Shown: piece after piece, positions 7,495-63,998 of the stretch
How the letters are laid out: each line of letters begins with the position of its first letter
How positions within the stretch are numbered: position 1 is the stretch's first letter
Notes under the pieces: generated by a model
Seen by the model: the letters and a program-made list of their open reading frames with translations, nothing else
The model's database searches: none
What the model was told of the DNA's origin: nothing
Position numbers and translations under genes: made by a program
Virus record (IMG/VR): IMGVR_UViG_3300047160_018755
Coordinates: 64,001-128,000 of that record
Origin: a virus
Length of the DNA stretch: 64,000 bases
Strand: one strand, 5' to 3'

Positions 7495-9434
7495 ACCCTC
7501 TCTTCGAGAAGGGCGCCACCATGGTGCTCAAGGACAAGAAGGAGCCCAAGCGCAAGCTGCGCTATGCGTTGGGCATCGACGCCAACGGCGTCCCCCTCAA
7601 GAAGGGCGACCGCGTGAAGTGGACCGAGGCGTACACGCGCCGGCTCTACTTGCGCTCGCGCCAGCACCGTGCCGAGTTCATGGGCCAGGTGGGCGTGGTC
7701 GAGGATCTGTGCAAGTGGGGCGAGGAGCGCGGCCCCGAGGTCAACGTCCGCTACTTCCACAGCAACTTCTTCGGCAAGTCCAAGAACGGCCTGCGCTACT
7801 CGGCGCACCCGAGCGACCTGGTCAAGGTGACCCCATGACGGGGATCTCATGTGAGAGGGCTCGATTTTTCCTTGACACGGATCCCCGATTGTGAGATAAC
7901 AAAACCATGCCAACACAAAAGTTCCTTCGTGAATCCCAAGAGCGGACCTACCAGGCGATCGAGACCCTCGGCGAGGTCTCGGCCTACGACGTCATGGACG
8001 TGGTTGCAGCCGGCCTGGAGGGAAACAGGGCCTTCGCGATGCGCCAGCGGGTGAGCGGCGCGTGCTCCGAGCTTCACGCCGAAGGCCGGATCGTCAAGGT
8101 CGGACGCAAGGTCAACCCTTCGTCCGGGGAAACTGTCAACGTCTACCGCGCCAACCCCGAAGGCACGTCGTGCAGCTGCGGCAACTGCCCCGGCGACGGC
8201 GCCGATGGCGAAGGGGCCGGCTACAAGAGCAAGTACGAGGCGCTCTTGGAGAAGTATCAAGCTCTTCTGGCCGAGCGCGTACCGCTCTGCCGTGACTGCT
8301 GCACAATCCTGTGCCGCAGCTGCACGACGAACCGCAACCGAGCCACTTTGGTTGCGGTTGCCTGACCAAGACCAGTTCTTCGCCTAAATCTCTGGTACGG
8401 AGCGCGGCATGCTGCGCAGGGAGAGCCTGCGAGGGGTGTCTCGGGAGTGTCCTACCTGTTGAAACACCGGCTCCGTACCCTCTTTTCCACCACATGAAAG
8501 GATCCACATGACGACCAGCGAGATGTCCACCGACCTCGTCAAAGAGGTGACCGCCAAGCTTCACGAGCAGATCGACGCCGCCATCGAGGCGCGCAACTCC
8601 GCCTTCCAGGCCATGACGCCGGCCGAGAAGCGCAAGACCGTCGCCTACGACGTCCTGGAGCAGCTGTACCAGAAGCGCTTCGTGGCCCATTGCGGTCAGT
8701 GGCTCTCGTCCAACGACGTGACGGGCCTGCGCAACATCGACCGCTACGAGATCATCCCCAAGGAGGCGCTGGACGCCGATGCGCAGACCGCCATCGCCGG
8801 CAAGACCTGCGACGTGTGTGCTCTGGGCGCGCTCTTCGCCTGCACCATCGAGCGCCAGAACAGCATCGACATCGCGGGCGTGCGGCGGGCCGACTTCCGC
8901 GGCATCAGCGCCTACCTGACGGGCATCTTCGATCGCCGCACCCTCAACCTCATCGAAGCGTGCTTCGAGCGCCGCCGCGACTCCTGCGACTTCATGGACT
9001 ACGACAGCACGACGCGCCAGGAGGACGAGGTCCGCGTCAACACGTGGCTCAAGTACCACGGCAGCGAAAGCTCCTCCGAGCGCATGGTCTCGATCATGCG
9101 CAACATCGTCCGCCACGAGGGCGAGTTCGCGGTCTAGATGACGTGGGCTGAGCTACGAGATGCACTCCAGTGCCGGCACCTGAGCGGGCGACACTGGAGC
9201 AACGGCGAGTGGCCGCACATCTACGAGTTCGCCTGCAACGACTGCGCCTTCTGGTGGACCAACACGGTGGTGACGACGCGCCCGCCACAGTGGGACTGGG
9301 CGGACTGGCTCATCGATCACTGGCTCGATCCGTACCACGCCTTCGCCGACTGCATCAAGCGGGAGGACGACCTGCCCTGCAAGGAGTGTCGCGAGTACGC
9401 GATGGATGCCGTGGGTGCGCCACGCAGGAGTTGA
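7491..9434 (+). other. Hypothetical genes 7491-7838, 7907-8365 (possible winged-helix), 8508-9137, 9138-9434
   Basis: RBSs; TTGACA at 7872 before 7907; coding-like composition. Confidence 0.6.
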
Positions 9435-9488
9435 ACCTGCAACCTTTCCCTTAGGAGGGGACTGCTCGTCCAATCGAGCTAGAGGCGC
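9416..9488 (-). tRNA. tRNA-Arg(CCT)
   Basis: Cloverleaf, anticodon loop CTCCTAA, T-loop TTCAACT. Confidence 0.85.
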
Positions 9489-9494
9489 GTGGGT

Positions 9495-9567
9495 GCTCTT
9501 CGTAGGGATCGAACCTACATCCACAGGGCTTAGAAGGCCCGGGTCTTTCCAGTTGATGTAGAAGAGC
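9495..9567 (-). tRNA. tRNA-Arg(TCT)
   Basis: GCTCTTC/GAAGAGC acceptor, loop CTTCTAA; overlapped by the 3' end of the HNH gene. Confidence 0.8.
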
Positions 9568-9952
9568 GCTGATAGGTCCGCTCGCGGTGGCAATTGGCGC
9601 ACACGAGATCACATTTGGCAATTTCTGCTAGAATCTTGGACCGAGAGCCGTACTCACTCAACATGGCGACGCCGGCTACCTTCTTCTCTCCCGGACGATG
9701 ATCCCAGTCCATCACGTACGGAGGGTAGGCGACTCCACAGTCGGAGCACGGCTTCCCAGCTTTCAGGGACCGAGCGAAAGCAACGATCTCTTTTCTGTGA
9801 ACCTTCGCCTTCTGTAGGTATTTCCTCTTGTTCTTGCGGTAGTGCTCGTCCTTGTACGCCTTCTGGCACGATCTACAGAACGGCTGGAGCCCGTTCCTCT
9901 TCTTAGAAAACTCAGAATCTGGCTTCGGACCACACTTGGAGCAAATTGCCAT
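9530..9952 (-). CDS. HNH homing-type endonuclease
   Basis: CSKC..CRSC N-terminal Zn finger; CSDC...DWDH...CDLVCANCHRERT; lower GC; AATCTT 6 nt before ATG. Confidence 0.85.
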   Translation of the reverse strand: MAICSKCGPKPDSEFSKKRNGLQPFCRSCQKAYKDEHYRKNKRKYLQKAKVHRKEIVAFARSLKAGKPCSDCGVAYPPYVMDWDHRPGEKKVAGVAMLSEYGSRSKILAEIAKCDLVCANCHRERTYQRSSTSTGKTRAF

Positions 9953-9979
9953 GTTTTCAAGATTGTGATCCGATGAAAG

Positions 9980-10051
9980 TAGCCTGTGAGGGTGCCGCCC
10001 CCTCTTTGCCGCCTTGAAAGGGCGGAAGCCTAGCTGTTGACCGAACAGGCC
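9980..10051 (-). tRNA. tRNA-Glu(TTC), atypical T-loop
   Basis: CCGCC-CTTTCAA-GGCGG anticodon arm; T-loop GGCGGCA. Confidence 0.7.
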
Positions 10052-10115
10052 GTGAATCCTCACTAAACTGCCATATCTCACCGCAAAGTGAGGATTGATA
10101 ATTTAGTGAGGTATG

Positions 10116-10186
10116 TAGCCCTATGGGGACTCGAACCCCATCCATCTGGCTGAGAACCAGAGATCCTACCCATAAACGATAGGGCC
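10116..10186 (-). tRNA. tRNA-Glu(CTC)
   Basis: TCTGG-TTCTCAG-CCAGA; GGTTCGAGTCC. Confidence 0.85.
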
Positions 10187-10191
10187 ATGAG

Positions 10192-10264
10192 CATGTCGTC
10201 AAGGAATCGAACCTTGCTTTTCCGTTTTGGAGACGGAACCGTTCCCAGGACCGGTCAACGACAT
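10192..10264 (-). tRNA. tRNA-Trp(CCA)
   Basis: TCCGT-CTCCAAA-ACGGA; GGTTCGATTCC. Confidence 0.85.
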
Positions 10265-10280
10265 ATAGAATTCTGCACGG

Positions 10281-10354
10281 TAGGCTCGGTCGGGTACGAT
10301 CCGACAGCCGTTCGCTTAAAAGGCGACTGCTCTGTCCGTTTGAGCTACGGGCCT
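10281..10354 (-). tRNA. tRNA-Lys(TTT)
   Basis: Loop CTTTTAA; T-loop ATCGTAC. Confidence 0.8.
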
Positions 10355-10410
10355 GTGTGTCGGCTGTTTATGAGCCCACCGATCCGCCGACCGATCGATG
10401 AGAATCCCTG

Positions 10411-10482
10411 AGCGCGCTGCGAGGATCGAACTCGCTCCGTCTGGGTGGAAGCCAGGTATGCCGCCAAGTACACCTAGCGCGC
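10411..10482 (-). tRNA. tRNA-Gly(TCC)
   Basis: GCGCGCT/AGCGCGC acceptor, U73, loop CTTCCAC. Confidence 0.85.
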
Positions 10483-10499
10483 AGAAAGGAAATAAAGGA

Positions 10500-10657
10500 G
10501 CCGGTGTGCTACCGTTACACTAAGTCCGACAGAGGCAGCGTTTCACTCTAGACGTTTTGGCGACTTGATCAGGGCCGCTACTGGCTGTCCTAGCTGCATG
10601 TCCCTCCCACCGTATCAGGGCAAGAGGTTTGGTGTGGAGTCGAACCACTCCACCGGC
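10500..10657 (-). ncRNA. Permuted tRNA-like RNA A (T-arm first, D-arm last, about 100 nt structured insert)
   Basis: GCCGGTG..CACCGGC closing stem; GTGG-TTCGACT-CCAC at 5'; TA-GTGT-AACGGTA-GCAC at 3'. Confidence 0.6.
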
Positions 10658-10660
10658 TTT

Positions 10661-10734
10661 TGGAGCACCTACCGCGAGTCGGACGCGGGCTTCCTCGTTG
10701 GCAACGAGGTTTGCTACCGTAACAACTTAGGTGC
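10661..10734 (-). tRNA. tRNA-Gly(GCC)
   Basis: GCACCTA/TAGGTGC, loop TTGCCAA, encoded CCA. Confidence 0.85.
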
Positions 10735-10757
10735 GTATTTCGTAGTCTTTGGCAAAC

Positions 10758-10880
10758 TTACATTCGTAGATCCGCCCTGTGTCCGTCACTAAAGGGAAGC
10801 AGGACCTTCTTCCCGGCGCGCACCAGGGCTGCCAAGATCATCGCCTTGGATAAATCACCAACTCCTGTTGTATCGCGCAT
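10758..10880 (-). pseudogene. Truncated PD-(D/E)XK homing endonuclease relic
   Basis: MRDTTGVGDLSKAMILAALVRAGKKVLLPFSDGHRADL then stop; resembles the N-terminus of PDDEXK_5-type endonucleases. Confidence 0.6.
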
Positions 10881-10882
10881 TG

Positions 10883-10955
10883 TTGCGGAGGTCGGATTCG
10901 AACCGACGTATGGCTGGGTATGGGCCAGCTGAATGGGCCACTTTTCTACTCCGCA
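10883..10955 (-). tRNA. tRNA-Met(CAT)
   Basis: GCTGG-CCCATAC-CCAGC; GGTTCGAATCC; initiator/elongator/Ile2 identity not resolved. Confidence 0.8.
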
Positions 10956-10975
10956 GTGTATTTCTATCGAATCTG

Positions 10976-11050
10976 TAGGTCCGGTGGGGGATGATCCCAC
11001 AACCTTTCGCTTAAGAGGCGATTGCTCTGAACCAGTTGAGCTACGAACCT
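10976..11050 (-). tRNA. tRNA-Lys(CTT)
   Basis: Loop CTCTTAA; T-loop ATCATCC. Confidence 0.8.
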
Positions 11051-11107
11051 GTGGGGGTCTCTCCCTCAGTCAAGCCTGGATTTCGCGGCGGCTTTCCCTA
11101 CTTTGGC

Positions 11108-11184
11108 GCTGGCGACTTAAACCACTCGTCCACAGGCCCGATCTTTCGAACGAGCCCGGCGGGATTCGAACCCGCGTCTCCAGC
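11108..11184 (-). ncRNA. Permuted tRNA-like RNA B (YrlA-like)
   Basis: GCTGG-AGAC-GCGGG TTCGAAT CCCGC-CGGGCTC-GTTC GAAA GATC-GGGCCTG-TG-GAC GAGTGGTTTAA GTC-G-CCAGC. Confidence 0.8.
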
Positions 11185-11191
11185 AATTCCG

Positions 11192-11458
11192 TTACCTGCG
11201 CTTCTTGCTGTCGAGCTTGGTCGCGAACGACCTCTCGGCAGAGCGCTGAAGATCGAGAGCCTTGCTGTCCATCGTCGAGCCACGCTCGGTCACGACCCAG
11301 CCCCTGCTCCACTTGCCCTCGTCGTCCTCGGCACTGTCGATCAAGATCTCGACGTGCTTGCCGACCTTGGCGAAGCTTGTTGGAATGAAGGCGGTGTGAA
11401 TCTGCTTGCCGCCACCTTCGCACGGCCTTTCCATCCTGCATTGCGTGTACGATGCCAT
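11192..11458 (-). CDS. Hypothetical protein inside the tRNA cluster
   Basis: AAGGA RBS; 88 aa. Confidence 0.6.
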   Translation of the reverse strand: MASYTQCRMERPCEGGGKQIHTAFIPTSFAKVGKHVEILIDSAEDDEGKWSRGWVVTERGSTMDSKALDLQRSAERSFATKLDSKKRR

Positions 11459-11481
11459 CTGACTTCTCTCTTCCTTGTTTG

Positions 11482-11553
11482 TGGACCAGCAGGGAATCGA
11501 ACCCTGATCTCCGCAGTGCGAAAGCGGCGTCTTCCCATTGATACGACCAGCCC
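11482..11553 (-). tRNA. tRNA-Ala(CGC)
   Basis: G3:U70 pair, loop TTCGCAC. Confidence 0.85.
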
Positions 11554-11617
11554 AAAGTAATGGGTCGGTTACGACCGACTGGCACCTCGTGGATGCCATG
11601 TAGCCGACTGACCCTCG

Positions 11618-11689
11618 TGCGCCTCGCTGGGATCGAACCAACGGCCTCTCCCGTGTCATGGGATTGCTCTTCCGCTGAGCTAGAGGCGC
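11618..11689 (-). tRNA. tRNA-Val(GAC)
   Basis: Cloverleaf, loop ATGACAC. Confidence 0.85.
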
Positions 11690-11692
11690 AGG

Positions 11693-11766
11693 CTCCAGTG
11701 TGCTACCTTTACACTACCGCGCCCATAGTGGTGGGCTTGGGCGGACTTGAACCGCTACTCCTGGAG
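11693..11766 (-). ncRNA. Permuted tRNA-like RNA C
   Basis: CTCCAG-GAGTA-GCGG TTCAAGT CCGC-CCAAGCCC-ACCACTAT-GGGCGCGG-TA-GTGT AAAGGTA GCAC-A-CTGGAG. Confidence 0.75.
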
Positions 11767-11771
11767 TTTCG

Positions 11772-11843
11772 TGCGTCTTGATGGGATCGAACCACCGGCC
11801 TTTCCCGTGTGAAGGGACTGCTCTACCGCTGAGCTAAAGGCGC
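11772..11843 (-). tRNA. tRNA-Val(CAC)
   Basis: Cloverleaf, loop TTCACAC. Confidence 0.9.
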
Positions 11844-11910
11844 ATGTTTGGGAGTCTTCTTCACTCCCCACGTCTTGGACTATTTAATTTTCAGAGATCC
11901 GAACCCACTC

Positions 11911-11987
11911 TGGCTCCGGAGGACCGACTCGAACGGTCATCTACATCTGGTTAACAGCCAGGCGCTCTGCCATTGAGCTACCCCGGA
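11911..11987 (-). tRNA. tRNA-Asn(GTT)
   Basis: TCCGGGG/CTCCGGA, loop CTGTTAA, CCA. Confidence 0.9.
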
Positions 11988-12013
11988 AAACGCCTGGCCT
12001 GATCGGCTCAGGG

Positions 12014-12133
12014 TTACTTCAGGGTGGCTTCTACTTTGGCGCCGCCAGCCCACCCCATGCCGGCAGCGCACACGTTCGCCTCGGCCTTATTGGCCTCCGC
12101 GATCATGACGTTGACGTTGGTGTTGGTGAGCAT
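12014..12133 (-). CDS. Putative leader peptide of tRNA operon 1 (39 aa)
   Basis: MLTNTNVNVMIAEANKAEANVCAAGMGWAGGAKVEATLK; TAATCT motif and GAGG upstream; 26 nt before tRNA-Asn. Confidence 0.65.
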   Translation of the reverse strand: MLTNTNVNVMIAEANKAEANVCAAGMGWAGGAKVEATLK

Positions 12134-12265
12134 GACTGGAACCCTCAGTAGATTAGGACTCGAAAACCGATCCACTACACTTCTATCGAATCTCGACGGA
12201 GAAAGCAAGCGAATACGTACATCCCCGCATTGCTTTTTCTGGCGTAACCTGTAGGGTGACGCGCC

Positions 12266-13057
12266 ATGGGAACAGAGGGTAGCAAGCGCAGGGCGGATGT
12301 GGTAGTATCGTCGAATGAGCACGGGGTTTGCATCTTCCACCCCACGAACCTGAGAGCACAGACGTGGCTGGCACAGAACGTGTCGGCCGAGTTCCACGAC
12401 AACGGCCACGTACGCTGTGGCCCGTTCAAGGCGGCGCAGCTGGTCTACTGGCTCGCCCTGGAAGGATTCGAGGTCAAATGACGAGCCGCATCAGACGCAA
12501 GACGCCGGTCAAGAAGCTCTACCCGTCCCAGGTCAAGGCCGAGTGGAAGAGCCTGGGACGTCGCGCCATACGCTTGTGGAAGCTGTCGGCGGGGCTCGAC
12601 CCCGAAATCGACAAGCTCTTCAAGCGCATGGACGCGTGTGATCGTGCGATGGCTAGGGAAGCTCGACGTCAGAGGCGCGAAGCTTCCGTACGATAGCGTC
12701 CGCCTCGTCCGGAGGCACGCCGTGCTGCTGGAGCAGTCCAGAGAGGCGCTCGAACACGTGGTTGACGCCGAACGTGAAGCTGTCGCTGTTGCGCGACACC
12801 ACCGCACCAGGTGGGCGCCAGCACACGATGCAGCGCTCCGCGGTGACATCCTCGTCCGTGGGGAGGGATTCCTGTGGCGCGGCGCCGCCCGGCACGGTCA
12901 CGTCTTCCTCTGCGTCTACAACAGATACGCTCATTTCGCACTCCTGGGGTTGACCGATCATGTTCGCCGGTATATCACACTGCATCCTGTCAGGGAAGCC
13001 CTTATCGCACAAAAGCGCCACGATCGTGACACCTACAATGGATCTCACAATACGTAG
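12266..13057 (+). other. Hypothetical genes 12266-12481, 12478-12696, about 12638-13057
   Basis: Overlapping ORFs, no family recognised. Confidence 0.45.
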
Positions 13058-13168
13058 GGCCCCGGATAGCTTTAACCGCTGCATGTGGTAGTTTGAAAAC
13101 CATGGAAGGCACGCAAGACACGGTGTCGAGCGGCCAGCAAAAAGCAGTTGGGGAGAAAGGAAACGACC

Positions 13169-14029
13169 ATGACCACCAGCACGAAGAACGGCAACCAGGG
13201 GCAGAACAACAACACCGAGAAGAAGGGCGGCACGCTCAGCTCAGCTGACGCATTGCAGCTCCTCTTCTCCACGGCAAACGCGCAGGGGTTGGAGCACGAC
13301 CGCGTCAACCCCGCACGGGTAGTGGAGCTGAAGAAGACGCTGGGCCGGTGGAAGAGGCCCAAGATCATCACGACGCCGAAGGGTGTCATCCTGCAAGGTG
13401 CCGACTACGTCGCGGCGCTGGCGGCAGCACCGAACGTCGAGGCCGAAGTGGACATCGACAGAACGGGCACGACCTCAAGGCGGGAGCTAAAGAAACCCGC
13501 AACTCCTGTCGAAGCTCTCACCAAGGCGGGAATCCAGGACGCAGCCTTCAAGCTGGCGGTCTGGCGCGGGCTCAGGGAGGGGGCAACATCCAACCCCGAG
13601 GCGGACACACCGAAGCAGCTGGTCGAGAAGCTCGCAGACCCGGCGTTCCTCAAGCCGTTCGAGGCGCTCAAGGCACCCTACGATGCCGTGTCGTCGCAGG
13701 GCGTGGCCAAAGCAGGGAGGCTGCGGTCCAAGATCGCATTTGCGGCCTTCCACCTGGCATACGCAGCCAACCCCAAGGTGATCGTCCAGCTGTACTCGGA
13801 CTTCATCGCAGGGAAGGCGCCCGCCGGCTCGCCGCTGGAGAAGCTCCTTCACGCAGCGAGGCACGACAACATCAACAGCGGCTCCGGCCGGCGTCCCTTC
13901 ATGCTGAAAGCCAGCATCCTGCTCGCAGCGCAGCTGGCAGGGGAGAAGGTCGAGCGCGCATCCGCAGACCCCGCGAAGGGTGAGAAGGCCGTCCAGATCT
14001 TCCTCTCCCAGACGCAGGGGAATGCCTGA
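13169..14029 (+). CDS. Degenerate ParB-like N-terminal domain protein
   Basis: RVNPARVVELKKTLGRWKRPKIITTPKGVILQGADYVAAL resembles phage ParB-N families, with QGADY where DGQHR is usual. Confidence 0.45.
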   Translation: MTTSTKNGNQGQNNNTEKKGGTLSSADALQLLFSTANAQGLEHDRVNPARVVELKKTLGRWKRPKIITTPKGVILQGADYVAALAAAPNVEAEVDIDRTGTTSRRELKKPATPVEALTKAGIQDAAFKLAVWRGLREGATSNPEADTPKQLVEKLADPAFLKPFEALKAPYDAVSSQGVAKAGRLRSKIAFAAFHLAYAANPKVIVQLYSDFIAGKAPAGSPLEKLLHAARHDNINSGSGRRPFMLKASILLAAQLAGEKVERASADPAKGEKAVQIFLSQTQGNA

Positions 14030-19413: not shown

Positions 19414-19795
19414 TGCTCACGAAGCTCCTGAACCCCATGGGGATCAGGCTCACGAACGCGAGCGCCGCCTGGATCGTCCTCGGCACCCTTCTTTCACTCG
19501 GTCTGCACGTGGCGTTCTACGGGACGCTGCTCCACTTCGTCATCAAGTTCTGGTAGGAGGCACATGTCGTTCGTTCCGAAGATCAAGAAAGCGAAGCGCA
19601 AGGCCATCGCCCGTCGTTCGGGCAAGACGATCGCGTCGGCCATCGACCGTCTCAACGCGAAGCTCACCAAGCCCCACCAGTTCCCGGTCCACGAGAACAA
19701 CCAGCTCCACAAGACCTCAGCGGCGATCGCCGAGGACGCCCGCCGTCAGGAGCGCCTGATGGACCGCAAGCGCTGGAGCCACGCGGGCTGATCGG

Positions 19796-21178
19796 TTAGT
19801 TCGAGATGACGCCGCACATGCTCGTCGTGATCGTCGAGTTGAGCGGCAACGAAGCCGTGGCGATGGCCGTGGCTGCGGCCTGGATGGGCGAGCCGTCACT
19901 CGTCGAGCCGTCCACAGTCACGGGCACCGACGCCGAGTTGTAGAGGAACGTCGTACCCGGGTTGACCTTGATCAGCTTGGCACTGTTGCCGCTACCCGCG
20001 ATGTTGTTCATGAGCATGAACGACCCTTGAGTGGAAAGGGTGAGGCAGTTGCCCGTGTTGTCGTAGAAGCACATCCTGGGTCCGTTCGCGTTCGAACCGC
20101 CGGAACCCATGGTGAAACCAACGGCGCCCTGGAAGAAGAGATTTCCAGACCACGAGAAGGTCATGCCGTTGCCGGTGAGGACGGCTGCGCCGACGAACGC
20201 AGCGGTGCGCATGTCGATGGAGCCGTGGCCGAGGAACTGCACGGAAGCCCAGAACGAGCAGTTCGAGAAGCGCCCGTTGGTGAAGTTCCTGGTCGTCGAG
20301 ATCGAGCAGCGGTCGTAGTTGATGTAGGAGAGCGTGTCGTTCGACACAGTCGAGCCGCCGTTAGCTGAGCGGTCATCGCAGAACAAGATCTGGAATCGCC
20401 CCTGGACGCTTCGCTGCATCTCTCGGGGGGCAGGGAAGCTCTGGGTGTAGATCTTGGGAAGCGACGAGATCGTGTAGGTGTCGCTCGCGGAGAGCGCACT
20501 GATTGCCGGCGTCGTCGCGTTGGTCACAGGATCGCTCATGCGAAGCGTGTTCGATCCGGAGTCCTTCATCGGGTGCCACCACACCTTCGTGCCGTTGGTG
20601 CGCTGGAAGATCACGCCGGCACGGATGAATCCAGACGCCGTCCACGAGCCGCCCGTGATGGAGTTGTCCACCATGTGGTTGTCTCCGGTGTTGGCGTTGC
20701 TCTGAACCTGCCCTGAGTACGAGGCCACGGTGCCAGTGTAGAGCACCGTGGGGGTGCCGATGAGGGAGATGCCGTCCGCGTTTGACGCAGCACCGGGCTG
20801 GAACTGGTACGTCCACACGGGAGAGTCCGTGCTCACGCAGTCCGACAGGAGGTTGATGGTGATCGACGTGCCCGACGGGATCGTCACCCACGCGAGGCGG
20901 TTGGCAATCTCCGTGAGGCTCTTGAGCGGCGCCGAGGCAGTGAGACCGGAGTTGCTGTCGCTTGCGATAGCGTTCTGCGGATCAACGTACCAGGTGGTTT
21001 GGATTCCCGGAGCCGTACCTTCACCGAAGGCAGCCCACCCCGTTGCCTTGTCTGCGATCTTGATGTAGAGCTTCCCCGTCAGAAACGAGTAGCCCATCTG
21101 ACCGATCGGAGCTTGCCAACCAGTGACGGTGGGATCCCCCTGAAGGAGGTATGCGACTGCGGTGTTGTTGTCAGCCAT
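19796..21178 (-). CDS. Tail fibre / receptor-binding protein, copy 1
   Basis: WYVDPQNAIASDSNSG...PLKS motif, S/T/G/N-rich beta-solenoid-like body; late motif upstream. Confidence 0.6.
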   Translation of the reverse strand: MADNNTAVAYLLQGDPTVTGWQAPIGQMGYSFLTGKLYIKIADKATGWAAFGEGTAPGIQTTWYVDPQNAIASDSNSGLTASAPLKSLTEIANRLAWVTIPSGTSITINLLSDCVSTDSPVWTYQFQPGAASNADGISLIGTPTVLYTGTVASYSGQVQSNANTGDNHMVDNSITGGSWTASGFIRAGVIFQRTNGTKVWWHPMKDSGSNTLRMSDPVTNATTPAISALSASDTYTISSLPKIYTQSFPAPREMQRSVQGRFQILFCDDRSANGGSTVSNDTLSYINYDRCSISTTRNFTNGRFSNCSFWASVQFLGHGSIDMRTAAFVGAAVLTGNGMTFSWSGNLFFQGAVGFTMGSGGSNANGPRMCFYDNTGNCLTLSTQGSFMLMNNIAGSGNSAKLIKVNPGTTFLYNSASVPVTVDGSTSDGSPIQAAATAIATASLPLNSTITTSMCGVISN

Positions 21179-38671: not shown

Positions 38672-38828
38672 GCGCAAAACCTCCAACTCTATTTCTATCG
38701 AATCTTTCGAAGAAACGCAAGTAGGATCCGTAAGCTACGAAACGGGCGGCGCCCGGGTCGATGTTCGGGAGAGGGAACCATCCAGACCGCGGGCGCCGCC
38801 ACCTTGGTGAGACTCCAAGAAGATTCGG

Positions 38829-38899
38829 TTCCCTCGCACCGATTCGAACGATGATCTGACGGGTCAAGGCCGTCGGTCCTGCCGTTAGACGACAAGGGA
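38829..38899 (-). tRNA. tRNA-Gln(TTG)
   Basis: GACGG-CCTTGAC-CCGTC. Confidence 0.85.
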
Positions 38900-38912
38900 G
38901 TATCGGACAATG

Positions 38913-38985
38913 TGCCGCCGGAGGGACTCGAACCCCCGCCCTTCCCGTTCGAAGCGGGTCGCTCGTCCAGTCGAGCTACAGCGGC
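38913..38985 (-). tRNA. tRNA-Arg(TCG)
   Basis: Loop CTTCGAA. Confidence 0.85.
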
Positions 38986-38986
38986 A

Positions 38987-39058
38987 TGGCCTCTCTGTCA
39001 AGAGTCGAACTTGAATTCCGGCCTTCGCAGGGCTAGATGGGATCCACTCCCCAAAGAG
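38987..39058 (-). tRNA. tRNA-Arg(GCG), atypical D-arm junction
   Basis: CTCTTTG/CAGAGAG, loop CTGCGAA, CCA; lacks U8. Confidence 0.6.
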
Positions 39059-39059
39059 A

Positions 39060-39133
39060 TGGTACGAGATGCTGGAATCGAACCAACGTCAGCCGCTAAT
39101 CGGGCAGCCGCACTACCATTGTGCTAATCTCGC
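39060..39133 (-). tRNA. tRNA-Ile(GAT)
   Basis: Loop CCGATTA, CCA. Confidence 0.85.
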
Positions 39134-39134
39134 A

Positions 39135-39208
39135 TGGTTGCCTCGGATCGATTCGAACGATCGTCGCCGGTTTCAGAGACCGGAGTCCTGCCGCTAGACG
39201 ACAAGGCA
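39135..39208 (-). tRNA. tRNA-Gln(CTG)
   Basis: CCGGT-CTCTGAA-ACCGG, CCA. Confidence 0.9.
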
Positions 39209-39217
39209 ATGTATTTG

Positions 39218-39288
39218 AGCTACTGGAAGGAATTGAACCCTCATTTCTGCCGTACGAAGGGAGTGTCCTGCCGTTGAACGACAGTAGC
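39218..39288 (-). tRNA. tRNA-Thr(CGT)
   Basis: Loop TTCGTAC; one mismatch in the anticodon stem. Confidence 0.75.
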
Positions 39289-39293
39289 ATCTG

Positions 39294-39364
39294 AGCCGAT
39301 CGAAGGAATTGAACCCTCGTGAACTGCTTACTGGGCAGTCGTCCTACCGTTGAACGAGATCGGC
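39294..39364 (-). tRNA. tRNA-Thr(AGT)
   Basis: ACTGC-CCAGTAA-GCAGT. Confidence 0.75.
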
Positions 39365-39366
39365 AT

Positions 39367-39455
39367 TGGTGGGCTACCCAGGAATCGAACCTAGCTGGAA
39401 CGTAAAGGACGCCTGTGTTACAGACAGGCCCGCCTCCATAGCGGTCTAGTAACCC
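39367..39455 (-). tRNA. tRNA-Tyr(GTA)
   Basis: Loop CTGTAAC, long variable arm, CCA. Confidence 0.85.
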
Positions 39456-39501
39456 AAACCAGTGACATGAGCGACTATTCAATTTTCAGAGAATCTTTCG
39501 G

Positions 39502-39576
39502 GGTGACCGGTGGGACTCGAACCCACAATTTGACTGATTCACAGTCAGCCGTGTCTACCAATTTCACCACGGCCAC
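39502..39576 (-). tRNA. tRNA-His(GTG)
   Basis: Loop CTGTGAA, C73. Confidence 0.85.
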
Positions 39577-39578
39577 AG

Positions 39579-39649
39579 TCTGGGTGACAGGAATCGAACC
39601 TGCATAACCTGGTTCCGGGCCAGGGAGCTAACCAATAGCCTACACCCAG
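39579..39649 (-). tRNA. tRNA-Pro(CGG)
   Basis: CCTGG-CCCGGAA-CCAGG. Confidence 0.8.
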
Positions 39650-39682
39650 AGATCGGGGCGCACGGCGAGGTTGCGTGTCTTG

Positions 39683-39755
39683 CGCTGCTGGCGGGATTCG
39701 AACCCGACCTCACGCGATAGACAGTCGCGCAGCCTCACCAGATGCTTACAGCAGC
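39683..39755 (-). tRNA. tRNA-Asp(GTC)
   Basis: Loop CTGTCTA, G73. Confidence 0.85.
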
Positions 39756-39763
39756 AGAGCTTG

Positions 39764-39835
39764 TCGCACCCGCAGGAATTGAACCTGCGCGCCCGGGATT
39801 TCAATCCGGTGCTCTACCAACTGAGCTAGGGTGCG
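39764..39835 (-). tRNA. tRNA-Phe(GAA)
   Basis: Loop TTGAAAT. Confidence 0.85.
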
Positions 39836-40014: not shown

Positions 40015-40147
40015 TGGAACACTCAGTAGATTAAGTCTGCCTCAGACGATCGTTGGAGTCAAGAAAAAAGAGGAGCCCGATCCTGTGGGCCCAGATTGTA
40101 CTTCTCTTCCCGTAGCCGTACGGGCTCCTCGTGTACCTTCTATCGAA

Positions 40148-40570
40148 TCACTCGCGCTTCGAGGGCGGAGATCCCGCGCACTCCAGGACCGCCCAGCACT
40201 CGTTCAGGAACGTCTGGACGTGATAGAAGCTCCAGTCGCCGGCCCAGTCGTGCTCCTCGAAGAACGTGCGCGCCGCGGCCTTGTTGTCGAACCACCGCAC
40301 GCCGCTCTCGATGCTGCCGGCCAGCTCCATCACCTCTTCCTTGGAGTCGCAGGCTTCCATCGCGTCGCAGCCGCTGCACGAGCCGTAGCCGATCGAGACG
40401 AAGCCGTAGCGGTCGCCGTCCTGGATGAGGTAGAAGAGGTCGCCCTGGTAGTCGCCCGCGCGTTCGTAGACGACGGTCTTACCGAGCGCGTCCACGATCT
40501 GCTCGTAGCTCGGGTAGGCCTTGCCGTAGTCCGTGTCGGGTCCAAACAGCTCTTCGTAGGTCTTGTTCAT
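40148..40570 (-). CDS. Conserved phage hypothetical protein
   Basis: GDYQG...GYGSCSGCD motif; GAGGA RBS. Confidence 0.7.
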   Translation of the reverse strand: MNKTYEELFGPDTDYGKAYPSYEQIVDALGKTVVYERAGDYQGDLFYLIQDGDRYGFVSIGYGSCSGCDAMEACDSKEEVMELAGSIESGVRWFDNKAAARTFFEEHDWAGDWSFYHVQTFLNECWAVLECAGSPPSKRE

Positions 40571-40629
40571 GGCGATCCTCGTTTTCTTTCTATCGAATCT
40601 AGGAACCGAAAGCAAGAACTATCGAATCG

Positions 40630-40701
40630 TGCCCCCGCCGGGATTCGAACCCGGAGCTTCCTGGTTTGAGCAGGCTGTCTGTGCCGTTGAACTACGAGGG
40701 C
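40630..40701 (-). tRNA. tRNA-Leu(CAA), short variable loop
   Basis: Loop CTCAAAC, A73, 4-nt variable region. Confidence 0.75.
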
Positions 40702-40702
40702 T

Positions 40703-40779
40703 TGGTACCCGGAGCGGGATTCGAACCCGCAACCTCCGCGTTCTGAGCGCGTTGCCTCTGCCGATTGAGCTACCCGGGC
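40703..40779 (-). tRNA. tRNA-Leu(CAG), short variable loop
   Basis: Loop CTCAGAA, A73, CCA, 5-nt variable region. Confidence 0.8.
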
Positions 40780-40784
40780 GTGAG

Positions 40785-40869
40785 TGCGATCGACAGGACT
40801 CGAACCTGCACGCCCGTTACGGGCACCGGACTCTCAATCCGGCGGGTCTACCAATTCCCCCACGATCGC
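40785..40869 (-). tRNA. tRNA-Leu(GAG)
   Basis: CCGGA-TTGAGAG-TCCGG, long variable arm. Confidence 0.9.
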
Positions 40870-62393: not shown

Positions 62394-63998
62394 TTAGGTC
62401 GTTACCCACAACGAGTTGATGATCAAATCGAGGGGCTCGTTGCCGAGGCGGACAGACACCTTCTGCAAGCGATCCATCGTGGGAATCGTGTTGATTCCGT
62501 AGCGCTGGCAGATGAGGCGCACGTCACCCGGAACGATTTTCCCAAACCAAGTCTTCAGCTCCTCAGCAACAGACGCCGGCACCCGCGGCAACGACTTGAG
62601 CTTCGTTGCGGTGTCGAGCTGGTGGAAGTTCTCGTCGAGGCACCACGCGCGCAGGTAGTACGGCACGAACGAGTTGCCGTCGTGGCCAGGATCGAAGCTC
62701 GGGCCGGCGAAGGCCGAGCCGTGATCGATGAGCTGCACGTCACCCTTCGGGTCGACCATCACGTTCTGGCCGTGCGAGTCCGGGTTGCCGAGGATGTAGT
62801 CGATCACGGCCCACTTGTGGACCAGACCCTCGTGCAGGTACTTGTGCAGGACGCTGCGAGCAGTGCCCGGCTCCTTGCGCTCCATCTCGTCGAGCGTCTT
62901 GAAGTCGAGAGCGAGCAGGTGGAGCGCGGAGTACATCTTATCGTCGATGATGACAAGCTCCGCGCGCGGGTACCACTTGCCGATCTCCCACTGCTTCGCG
63001 ATGTGGTAGAACGCGGCCTCGCGAGCGTTGGGGTTCGACGGGTCCTCCTTCGAGCCTGCGGCTCCGCCAGCTCCACCGCTGCCGGACTTGAGCAACAGCG
63101 TCGTCTTCGTCTGCTCATCGTAGGCGATGAACGATCCCTTCGAGTGCTTGCCGCCGAGCGCGACCGGGAACACGAAGTGCGTCTTGAACGCACGCTCGAT
63201 CATTCGCGCCACATCCTCACCCTCAAGATGCGCGGTCACGACCTTCGAAGCGGTCGGCGTCGGCTCCATGATCGGATCCGACTTCGTCAGCCCGCAGATG
63301 GCGTGCAGGGCCTTCAGGTTCTCTTCGCTGCACGGCAGGCCGTACGCCTGGAGCGCAGCACGATCCACGTCACCATCCTCGAAGTAGAGGGCCTGGCGCA
63401 TCGACTCGTCCGAGATGAGCGCTCCGTTGGCGAGGAACTTGGCTGCCTTGAATGCGCGGTGGTTCGCCGGCTCGAAGCCGAGCTGCATGGTCACGATCGG
63501 ATGCTTCGCCACGCCCTCCATCGGAGCCGAGGCGGCCGGGGTGAGCAGATCGAGTGCCTTCGAGAGCATCTTCTGGAGGTGCTGCGGGCCGAAGGCGGGG
63601 TTCGACATCACGCCGGCACGAAGGAGCGTGTCCGGGTGCAGGGCGTGGGTCGCCTCGTCAGCCAGCGTCGGAGACACGCTCTTGTTGCGCAGGAGCGCCC
63701 CGATGAGGCCCGGCGCGGCCGAGGTCGGCAGCAGCTGGGCCTTGGGGAGCAGGTCCTTGAAGATCTCGGCCAGAGCCGGCGTCGACAGACCTTGGTTTGA
63801 CTCCAAGGCGCGCTCCGCGAGCGCCACCACGTGGGGCTCGCCGCGGTCGGCAGCGCGCTGGACGAGGGCCCGGAGGGAGCCGTAGGGCAGCTCCAGGTGC
63901 TCCACAGCGCGCGAGCCGAGGTCTCCTGACCCGCCGCCAGGGACCGTCAGGGCCGTCTTCAGGGCGTGATCCAAGACATCCGCGGCGGCCCTCTTGTG
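62394..63998 (-). CDS. Large late protein with C-terminal HipA/PI3K-like kinase domain, truncated at the window end
   Basis: LLLKS..., REAAFY, DYILGNPDSHGQNVMV, LIDHGSAF; frame open to the window edge. Confidence 0.7.
   Translation of the reverse strand, partial: HKRAAADVLDHALKTALTVPGGGSGDLGSRAVEHLELPYGSLRALVQRAADRGEPHVVALAERALESNQGLSTPALAEIFKDLLPKAQLLPTSAAPGLIGALLRNKSVSPTLADEATHALHPDTLLRAGVMSNPAFGPQHLQKMLSKALDLLTPAASAPMEGVAKHPIVTMQLGFEPANHRAFKAAKFLANGALISDESMRQALYFEDGDVDRAALQAYGLPCSEENLKALHAICGLTKSDPIMEPTPTASKVVTAHLEGEDVARMIERAFKTHFVFPVALGGKHSKGSFIAYDEQTKTTLLLKSGSGGAGGAAGSKEDPSNPNAREAAFYHIAKQWEIGKWYPRAELVIIDDKMYSALHLLALDFKTLDEMERKEPGTARSVLHKYLHEGLVHKWAVIDYILGNPDSHGQNVMVDPKGDVQLIDHGSAFAGPSFDPGHDGNSFVPYYLRAWCLDENFHQLDTATKLKSLPRVPASVAEELKTWFGKIVPGDVRLICQRYGINTIPTMDRLQKVSVRLGNEPLDLIINSLWVTT

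Follow-up and report, generated by a model that had tools for sequence, protein, structure and literature searches.

Small open reading frames rich in the amino acids of the tRNAs behind them in a G+C-rich, Mx1-like soil phage genome

Leader frames and their tRNA units

The DNA analysed here, hereafter the window, is a stretch of 64,000 nucleotides (nt) that forms the middle part of IMG/VR virus record IMGVR_UViG_3300047160_018755, a single virus genome of 182,279 base pairs (bp) with 63% G+C. The nearest named phage is Myxococcus phage Mx1, whose tail sheath protein is 45% identical to that of this genome; the corresponding identity to IMG/VR contigs is approximately 70%, and DNA identical to the window was found in soil metagenomes only. 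The genome carries 30-odd transfer RNA (tRNA) genes and one transfer-messenger RNA (tmRNA) gene, arranged in a few blocks on the minus strand. We describe one tRNA unit, designated operon 1, which stands behind a 39-codon open reading frame (ORF), and three sister units of the same genome in which a small ORF likewise precedes tRNA genes: operon 2, a Leu unit with three tRNA-Leu genes and a Ser unit with a lone tRNA-Ser(GCT) (Table 1). These small ORFs are referred to below as leaders.

The operon-1 leader translates to the 39-residue peptide described originally. It has its stop codon at 12016-12014 (minus strand) and ends 26 nt before tRNA-Asn(GTT), which starts at 11987, as originally stated. 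A recount also agreed exactly with the earlier figure of 32 residues, out of 39, that belong to the set N, V, A, K, M, G, W and E (set 1), with all eight amino acids represented. These are the amino acids of the tRNAs behind the leader. Twelve such tRNAs had been listed, and eleven of them are called by tRNA-finding tools; the second tRNA-Glu is called by neither ARAGORN nor Rfam and appears only as a cloverleaf-like fold, and Rfam also misses Gly(GCC). The seven leader residues outside set 1 include three T, one I and two L, all specificities of other units. Two tRNA-Arg genes (CCT and TCT) are located further down the operon-1 strand, and the leader peptide contains no Arg. The residue order of the peptide had in addition been described as loosely following the order of the tRNA genes; such a correlation was nominal in operon 1 (rho ~0.5, P ~0.01) and absent in operon 2, and this idea was dropped.

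One explanation to be weighed is coincidence, in which an ordinary small gene, or a spurious ORF in G+C-rich DNA, is rich in Ala, Gly and Val and overlaps the tRNA list by chance. These residues are indeed frequent at 63% G+C, the finding was made post hoc, and nearly all codons of set 1 begin with a purine. Against the phage proteome, the enrichment nevertheless proved to be far above background: in a proxy proteome of 150 long ORFs with high G+C at third codon positions, set-1 residues have a frequency of 0.438, giving a binomial P of ~1e-6 for 32/39. Stretches of 39 residues reaching 32 set-1 residues are rare in this proteome (20/43,041), and among all 125,970 subsets of eight out of 20 amino acids, 19-36 fit the leader peptide as well as set 1 does. 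When Ala and Gly were left out, 18/25 residues still belonged to the set compared with an expected frequency of 0.31 (P = 3e-5). The enrichment survived stratification by first codon base, and within A-first codons alone the operon-1 leader favours N/K/M and the operon-2 leader T/I (Fisher P = 0.0013). Among the 375 ATG-initiated ORFs of 30-60 codons on both strands of the 182-kb genome, the leader ranks first: no other reaches a set-1 fraction of 0.82. It stands directly upstream of cluster 1.

The sister units were assessed in the same manner. The operon-2 and Leu leaders had been noted originally. The Ser leader, which turned up during promoter-motif mapping, uses five different Ser codons for its 8 Ser residues and is located ~100 nt upstream of tRNA-Ser(GCT), with a cloverleaf-like fold in between. 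When the small ORFs upstream of each tRNA gene were scanned without bias, exactly the Ser and Leu leaders emerged (null rate ~0.001). Of 979 small ORFs, the Leu leader alone combines 5 or more Leu with a Leu content of 40% or more, and the Ser and operon-2 leaders are each one of two in a comparable enrichment screen of small ORFs. When the four leaders were considered jointly, the real split of 19 amino acids over the units matched 77/109 residues, and only 2 of the 8,314,020 possible assignments of amino acids to four units matched as well (P = 2.4e-7); the exact partition test with three leaders gave P = 4.6e-6. Leader composition is linked to which tRNAs lie downstream, and we take this tie as real because of the enrichment tests, the 1/375 rank, the four matched units and the partition result. 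In view of the same results, and of the conservation of the ORF in four relatives (see below), coincidence is a highly improbable explanation.

Table 1. Features of the four leader/tRNA units (window coordinates unless stated otherwise)
Feature	Position	Strand	Remark
GATTCGATAG, promoter-like motif	12183..12192	-	49 nt upstream of leader ATG
TAATCTA (-10-like), second promoter-like element	12149..12155	-	15 nt before ATG; invariant in leader alignment
GAGGG, Shine-Dalgarno-like	12142..12146	-	8 nt before ATG
Operon-1 leader ORF	12014..12133	-	39 codons plus TAA
Hairpin H1	12077..12101	-	GGCC / GGCC core; codons 11-19; RNAalifold consensus, five sequences
Hairpin H2	12039..12069	-	11 bp, G+C-rich; codons 22-32; RNAalifold prediction
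Hairpin H3	11989..12015	-	last two stop-codon bases to 1-2 nt before tRNA-Asn; predicted fold
Cluster 1	9414-11987	-	tRNA block behind operon-1 leader
tRNA-Asn(GTT)	11911..11987	-	first gene of operon 1; ARAGORN and Rfam
tRNA-Val(CAC), Val(GAC), Ala(CGC), Lys(CTT)	10975..11843	-	interspersed with an 87-codon ORF and two permuted tRNA-like pieces
GATTCGATAG, internal copy	10964..10973	-	8 nt before tRNA-Met(CAT); no leader ORF
tRNA-Met(CAT), Gly(GCC), Gly(TCC), Lys(TTT), Trp(CCA), Glu(CTC)	10115..10955	-	ARAGORN, Rfam
tRNA-Glu(UUC)-like cloverleaf	9982..10050	-	non-canonical T loop; fold only
Operon-2 leader	40014-39874	-	before cluster 2
Cluster 2	38827-39835	-	tRNA block behind operon-2 leader
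Leu leader	40951-40907	-	before tRNA-Leu genes
Three tRNA-Leu genes	40629-40869	-	Leu unit
Ser leader	genome 15104-15060, beyond window	-	14 codons, 8 Ser
tRNA-Ser(GCT)	genome 14872-14957, beyond window	-	lone gene; Ser unit

Conservation of the operon-1 leader

An exhaustive phmmer search detected three homologues of the leader (P0002, P0003 and P0004), and a fourth (L016) was found with a conserved-core DNA pattern. All four are 39-40 codons long and 65-75% identical to the leader. At the corresponding metagenomic loci (L012, L013, L014 and L016), a TAATCT-like element, a Shine-Dalgarno-like block, the ATG, the length and the TAA are kept, and in 4/4 relatives tRNA-Asn is likewise the first gene behind the leader. 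The purine-rich block reads GAGG, GGAG or GAAGG and lies 7-9 nt before the ATG in 5/5 homologues despite differing flanks. The motif GATTCGATAG is kept ahead of the leader in L012, L013 and L014, and was not seen in L016 within the 50-odd nt of sequence upstream of the ORF. The relatives carry the same tRNA sets as the window genome, and in L012 the gene order is unchanged to the end of its contig; in L016, whose contig is cut, no tRNA-Ala is present between the second Val gene and the conserved block upstream of tRNA-Lys.

The leader frame (frame 0) is the only frame that is open in all five homologues, and the indels in the alignment are in-frame. Variable columns are distributed evenly over codon positions 1, 2 and 3 (16, 16 and 14), and the nonsynonymous substitution rate (dN) is close to the synonymous rate (dS), so the peptide sequence is not under purifying selection; the ORF itself is under selection in the relatives. 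The similar rates argue against the view that the function resides in the encoded 39 residues, e.g., as a small peptide with a membrane or regulatory role. The five homologues do have a core block in common, which would fit such a product; however, its conservation coincides with RNA hairpins, the peptide has no match in Pfam or PHROG, and we consider a functional peptide very unlikely. What is kept is composition. When differing sites were re-mutated at random, the number of set-1 residues dropped to ~25-26, whereas the real homologues hold 30-32; retention was significant for the window versus L012 and versus L013 (P <= 0.001 for each) and weaker for L014. A frame that is kept, a sequence that is free to vary and a composition that is retained form together the pattern that would be expected of a regulatory leader ORF.

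In two further relatives (L002 and L006), whose contigs stop short of operon 1, the operon-2 and Leu leaders are also conserved, with in-frame indels. ARAGORN did not call Asp and Tyr genes in these two contigs; both are present by alignment. The tRNA genes of Mx1 form one long array. Neither promoter motif has a similar place there, and no ORF qualified as a convincing cognate leader; Mx1 is too distant for comparison.

Other searches gave no additional relatives. With the leader region as query, the phage collection gave no match at the DNA or the protein level, and the flanking proteins (13148-14026, 8508-9134 and 19799-21178) had no kin in IMG/VR. Two back-translated or DNA patterns retrieved chance matches only, which lacked tRNAs, and one conserved-core pattern retrieved nothing in IMG/VR. 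A word-indexed protein search with the leader returned the window's own ORF only, and soil DNA contigs compared with the leader region contained only identical fragments or unrelated tRNA matches.

Promoter-like motifs, the tRNA array and predicted folds

Two promoter-like elements precede the operon-1 leader. The first, GATTCGATAG, occurs in ~30 copies in the genome (<1 expected), nearly always 9-50 nt before a start codon and in the orientation of the gene, and precedes the operon-1, Leu and Ser leaders. The second, TAATCT[TA] followed by ATG at 6-21 nt, is present ahead of ~12 ordinary genes and of all four tRNA leaders, in which the ATG lies 10-15 nt downstream. In the Ser cassette (genome 15060-15135, minus strand; window coordinate ~-48,900), GATTCGATAG and TAATCTT are both present and the ORF follows. 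TAATCTT with a start codon within 6-21 nt was also observed at many structural or late-region genes, e.g., at 62396, 61093, 59943, 55277, 53978 and 32904 (all minus strand). Judged by this arrangement, TAATCTT appears to mark another class of promoters, whose 5' leaders are very short and which is separate from the GATTCGATAG class.

An internal copy of GATTCGATAG stands before tRNA-Met and looks like an internal promoter, from which the Met, Gly, Gly, Lys, Trp and Glu genes could be transcribed bypassing the leader. In addition, a conserved block of ~45 nt with a TTGAC-like hexamer was observed just upstream of tRNA-Lys(CTT) in the window (11060-11105, minus strand), in L012 (1153-1207) and in L016 (1-45, minus strand); it may be a further internal promoter or a processing signal. 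At 40062-40149 (minus strand), a copy of the promoter-like motif is directly followed by a hairpin of ~80 nt with a terminal T run. This segment, which lies between the operon-2 leader and a gene of 155 codons, may encode a small RNA.

The tRNA array of operon 1 contains several unusual elements. Permuted tRNA-like pieces are interleaved with the normal tRNA genes at 11693-11766, 11108-11184 and ~10500-10650 (all minus strand); in these, the 3' half (T arm, acceptor strand and CCA-like end) precedes the 5' half (D arm), and an anticodon-stem-like helix closes the fold. A counterpart of the piece that lies between Gly(GCC) and Gly(TCC) is present in L012 (1680-1850). A 40-codon ORF (10761-10880, minus strand) aligns with positions 1-37 of the PD-(D/E)XK endonuclease family PF11645 below the cut-off (E = 4e-5) and, by this match, is probably a homing endonuclease remnant. 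An HNH endonuclease gene (9533-10081, minus strand) separates the Glu and Arg tRNAs, and in L016 an HNH-like gene is located between both Val tRNAs. Elsewhere in the window, ARAGORN reported a tRNA-Thr(GGT) candidate of 90 nt in an intergenic gap (19612-19701, minus strand).

Three hairpins are predicted in and directly behind the operon-1 leader. The base pairs of H1 are mostly invariant, and this hairpin is therefore weak evidence. In H2, two pairs are kept via two-sided changes, by which residues 24 and 30 alternate between Ala and Gly. H3, the one strongly conserved structure, folds in 5/5 homologues (-11.6 to -14.9 kcal/mol), with stems that differ and an AAC...GUU base that is constant. 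The folds were also computed under constraint, with a ribosome footprint set at every A-site codon of each leader. The probability of H3 was 0.4-1.0 (mostly 0.7-1.0) when the A site was ahead of the last three or four codons and 0-0.5 when it was on those codons; that is, only a ribosome that occupies the last 3-4 codons prevents the predicted hairpin. A similar arrangement is predicted for the Leu and Ser leaders: their stop codon lies in a hairpin loop, and the 5' arm consists of the last cognate codons. In the Leu unit of the window, the hairpin is followed by five U and qualifies as a proper terminator. The folds across units suggest that the common design is an ORF end plus a hairpin, not the three-hairpin switch of the trp/his type.

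Such folds raise the question of whether the element acts at the RNA level, with translation incidental. H3 could then be a 3' stabiliser of a cleaved leader or a modulator of RNase P at tRNA-Asn. The similar dN and dS, the compensatory pairs in H2 and the retention of a hairpin that has altered stems and abuts the RNase P site are all consistent with this possibility. However, it leaves unexplained why four leaders each match their own tRNA set, why a single open frame is kept together with its Shine-Dalgarno block, ATG and stop, and why composition is retained at substituted sites. On balance, a purely RNA-level element seems quite unlikely.

Modes of control and relation to known systems

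In the reading that we favour, and regard as moderately probable, the operon-1 ORF is translated as the first cistron, or leader, of a transcription unit for phage tRNAs and would serve as a cis-acting gauge of decoding speed for the amino acids that the unit serves. How long a ribosome takes to arrive at the end of the ORF would decide whether the stop-codon hairpin forms behind RNA polymerase: a closely following ribosome would block the hairpin and a lagging one would permit it. The outcome would set the amount of transcript that continues into, or is processed at, the tRNA genes, and candidate outputs include pausing, weak termination, Rho access and RNase P access. Since a close ribosome would prevent the hairpin and a lagging one would allow it, either sign of control, i.e., more or less tRNA on slow decoding, is compatible with this model.

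Several observations weigh against this reading. Because nearly all set-1 codons are purine-first, the compositional signal is inflated, even though it survives stratification. Half of the tRNAs that would be sensed need not depend on the leader, given the promoter-like motif before tRNA-Met. Most of the enrichment lies in a conserved G+C-rich block that also forms hairpins, and RNA-level constraint may therefore contribute to it. The whole leader folds no better than shuffled sequences (z = -1.7). The U run after H3 consists of four U in 3/5 homologues and is absent in 2/5, and a terminator scan called no intrinsic terminator between the ORF and tRNA-Asn, in line with the original remark that no clean U-tract terminator is visible there. 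In the constrained folds, no competing antiterminator was found at any ribosome position. Finally, the operon-1 codons read by the unit's own tRNAs number 23 compared with 25.5 expected, and 7/9 Ala codons of the leader are not read by tRNA-Ala(CGC). The original proposal of a sensing leader coupled to read-through thus stands in part: the leader is real and conserved, its composition is tied to the tRNAs and it has three sister units, but operon 1 lacks a terminator/antiterminator pair.

The same observations bear on classical attenuation of the his/trp type, in which stalling at cognate codons would favour an antiterminator over the terminator and induce the tRNA operon on shortage. The layout of promoter, short cognate-rich ORF, hairpin and genes resembles that of multivalent leaders, and in the Leu unit of this genome a genuine terminator, a hairpin plus five U, is built from the last Leu codons of the leader. 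At operon 1, however, the terminator is weak at best, no mutually exclusive folds are formed at any ribosome position, and the cognate codons are dispersed over the entire ORF instead of being placed at stall-relevant sites. Attenuation of this type is unlikely here.

Another possibility, suggested originally, is Rho-dependent polarity, with the C-rich, G-poor start of the ORF acting as a Rho loading site that ribosomes would cover or uncover. In 5/5 homologues, nt 1-33 of the ORF have a C-minus-G skew of 0.17-0.33 (top 1-14% of genome windows), a weak hint of a Rho site, and the missing intrinsic terminator at operon 1 would fit such control. The skewed stretch spans only ~30 nt compared with the usual 60-80 nt of a Rho utilization (rut) site, though, and further along, the leader is rich in G and structured. 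In addition, tRNA transcripts, being highly structured, are poor substrates for Rho. We therefore consider Rho-dependent polarity an improbable mode of control for this operon.

If the leader is a gauge of decoding speed, what it measures can be narrowed by its codons. The Ser leader has AGY codons at 3/8 of its Ser positions, and both the Ser and Leu leaders contain unusually many rare synonymous codons, as would fit a sensor of a whole amino-acid family and not of a single isoacceptor. Codon-to-anticodon tuning was rejected, as the cognate match exists at the level of amino acids and not of isoacceptors or codons. The codons of the leaders follow amino acids and not the units' own anticodons, so what is sensed is more likely the charged tRNA of each amino-acid family as a whole than that of just the isoacceptors encoded by the phage. 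By extension, the phage might run a set of translation-speed sensors, one per tRNA unit, each written in the amino acids of its own tRNAs and raising or throttling its block according to the supply of charged tRNA. Such a supply could fall, for example, after the action of host tRNA-cleaving defences or in starvation, and the tRNA genes would be under a feedback loop that operates via a stop-codon-embedded hairpin and needs no classical terminator/antiterminator pair. This wider scheme is tentative, and we hold it with some doubt.

Why phages carry tRNA genes, and how these genes are regulated, is an open question. Phage tRNAs have been tied to escape from tRNA-cleaving host defences (PMC10264068, PMC11555353). 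Our literature search found no report of leader ORFs controlling tRNA genes and no described mechanism that adjusts phage tRNA output to need. The tRNA-matched leader points to an unpublished coupling of tRNA production to ribosome decoding speed, and if this is true, leader-peptide control would extend from amino-acid enzymes to tRNA genes. The case comes from a G+C-rich, Mx1-like soil lineage, in which the match can occur in a unit lacking a classical terminator switch and concerns amino acids, not anticodons; these two properties constrain any model of such leaders. The leader cassette is ~200 nt long and directly testable.

Comparison with known systems places the operon-1 leader between several classes. 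Like T-box riboswitches, which sense tRNA directly and control genes for aminoacyl-tRNA synthetases and amino acids, it would link the charging state of tRNA to downstream read-through; in contrast to them, sensing would run through translation of an ORF and not through tRNA binding. An Rfam search of positions 9000-13000 (E <= 1) returned tRNAs and noise only, with no T-box match, and a T-box or other Rfam family was dropped as a candidate. A functional parallel is the trn operon of Anabaena PCC 7120, an accessory array of 26 tRNA genes that responds to the state of translation and is induced under translational stress (PMC10272220). This operon differs in being controlled by a protein repressor, TrcR, and the text describing it contains no leader, attenuation or stalling (PMC10272220).

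The closest layout is that of the multivalent attenuators of amino-acid biosynthesis operons, E. coli thrL and ilvL/ivbL (also trpL, hisL, leuL and pheL), in which a short translated ORF rich in cognate codons is located directly behind the promoter, several amino acids are sensed, a hairpin follows and the peptide sequence is unconstrained. At operon 1, a short ORF with a ribosome-binding site follows the promoter-like motifs and cognate enrichment is present at the amino-acid level. The differences are that phage tRNAs take the place of enzymes, that cognate codons are dispersed and not in runs, and that a canonical terminator and antiterminator are lacking; because of these last two features, operon 1 is not counted as a multivalent leader-peptide attenuator. 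With coupling attenuators of the pyrBI type, the leader shares a hairpin that starts in the stop codon and can be prevented only by a ribosome close behind the polymerase, and with tnaC-type Rho control it shares a C-rich ORF start. It differs from both, as its U tract is weak or absent and neither a rut site of normal length, nor a stalling peptide motif, nor a nucleotide or ligand logic is evident. By analogy, the operon-1 leader may work like a coupling attenuator similar to pyrBI or like a Rho-dependent one similar to tnaC.

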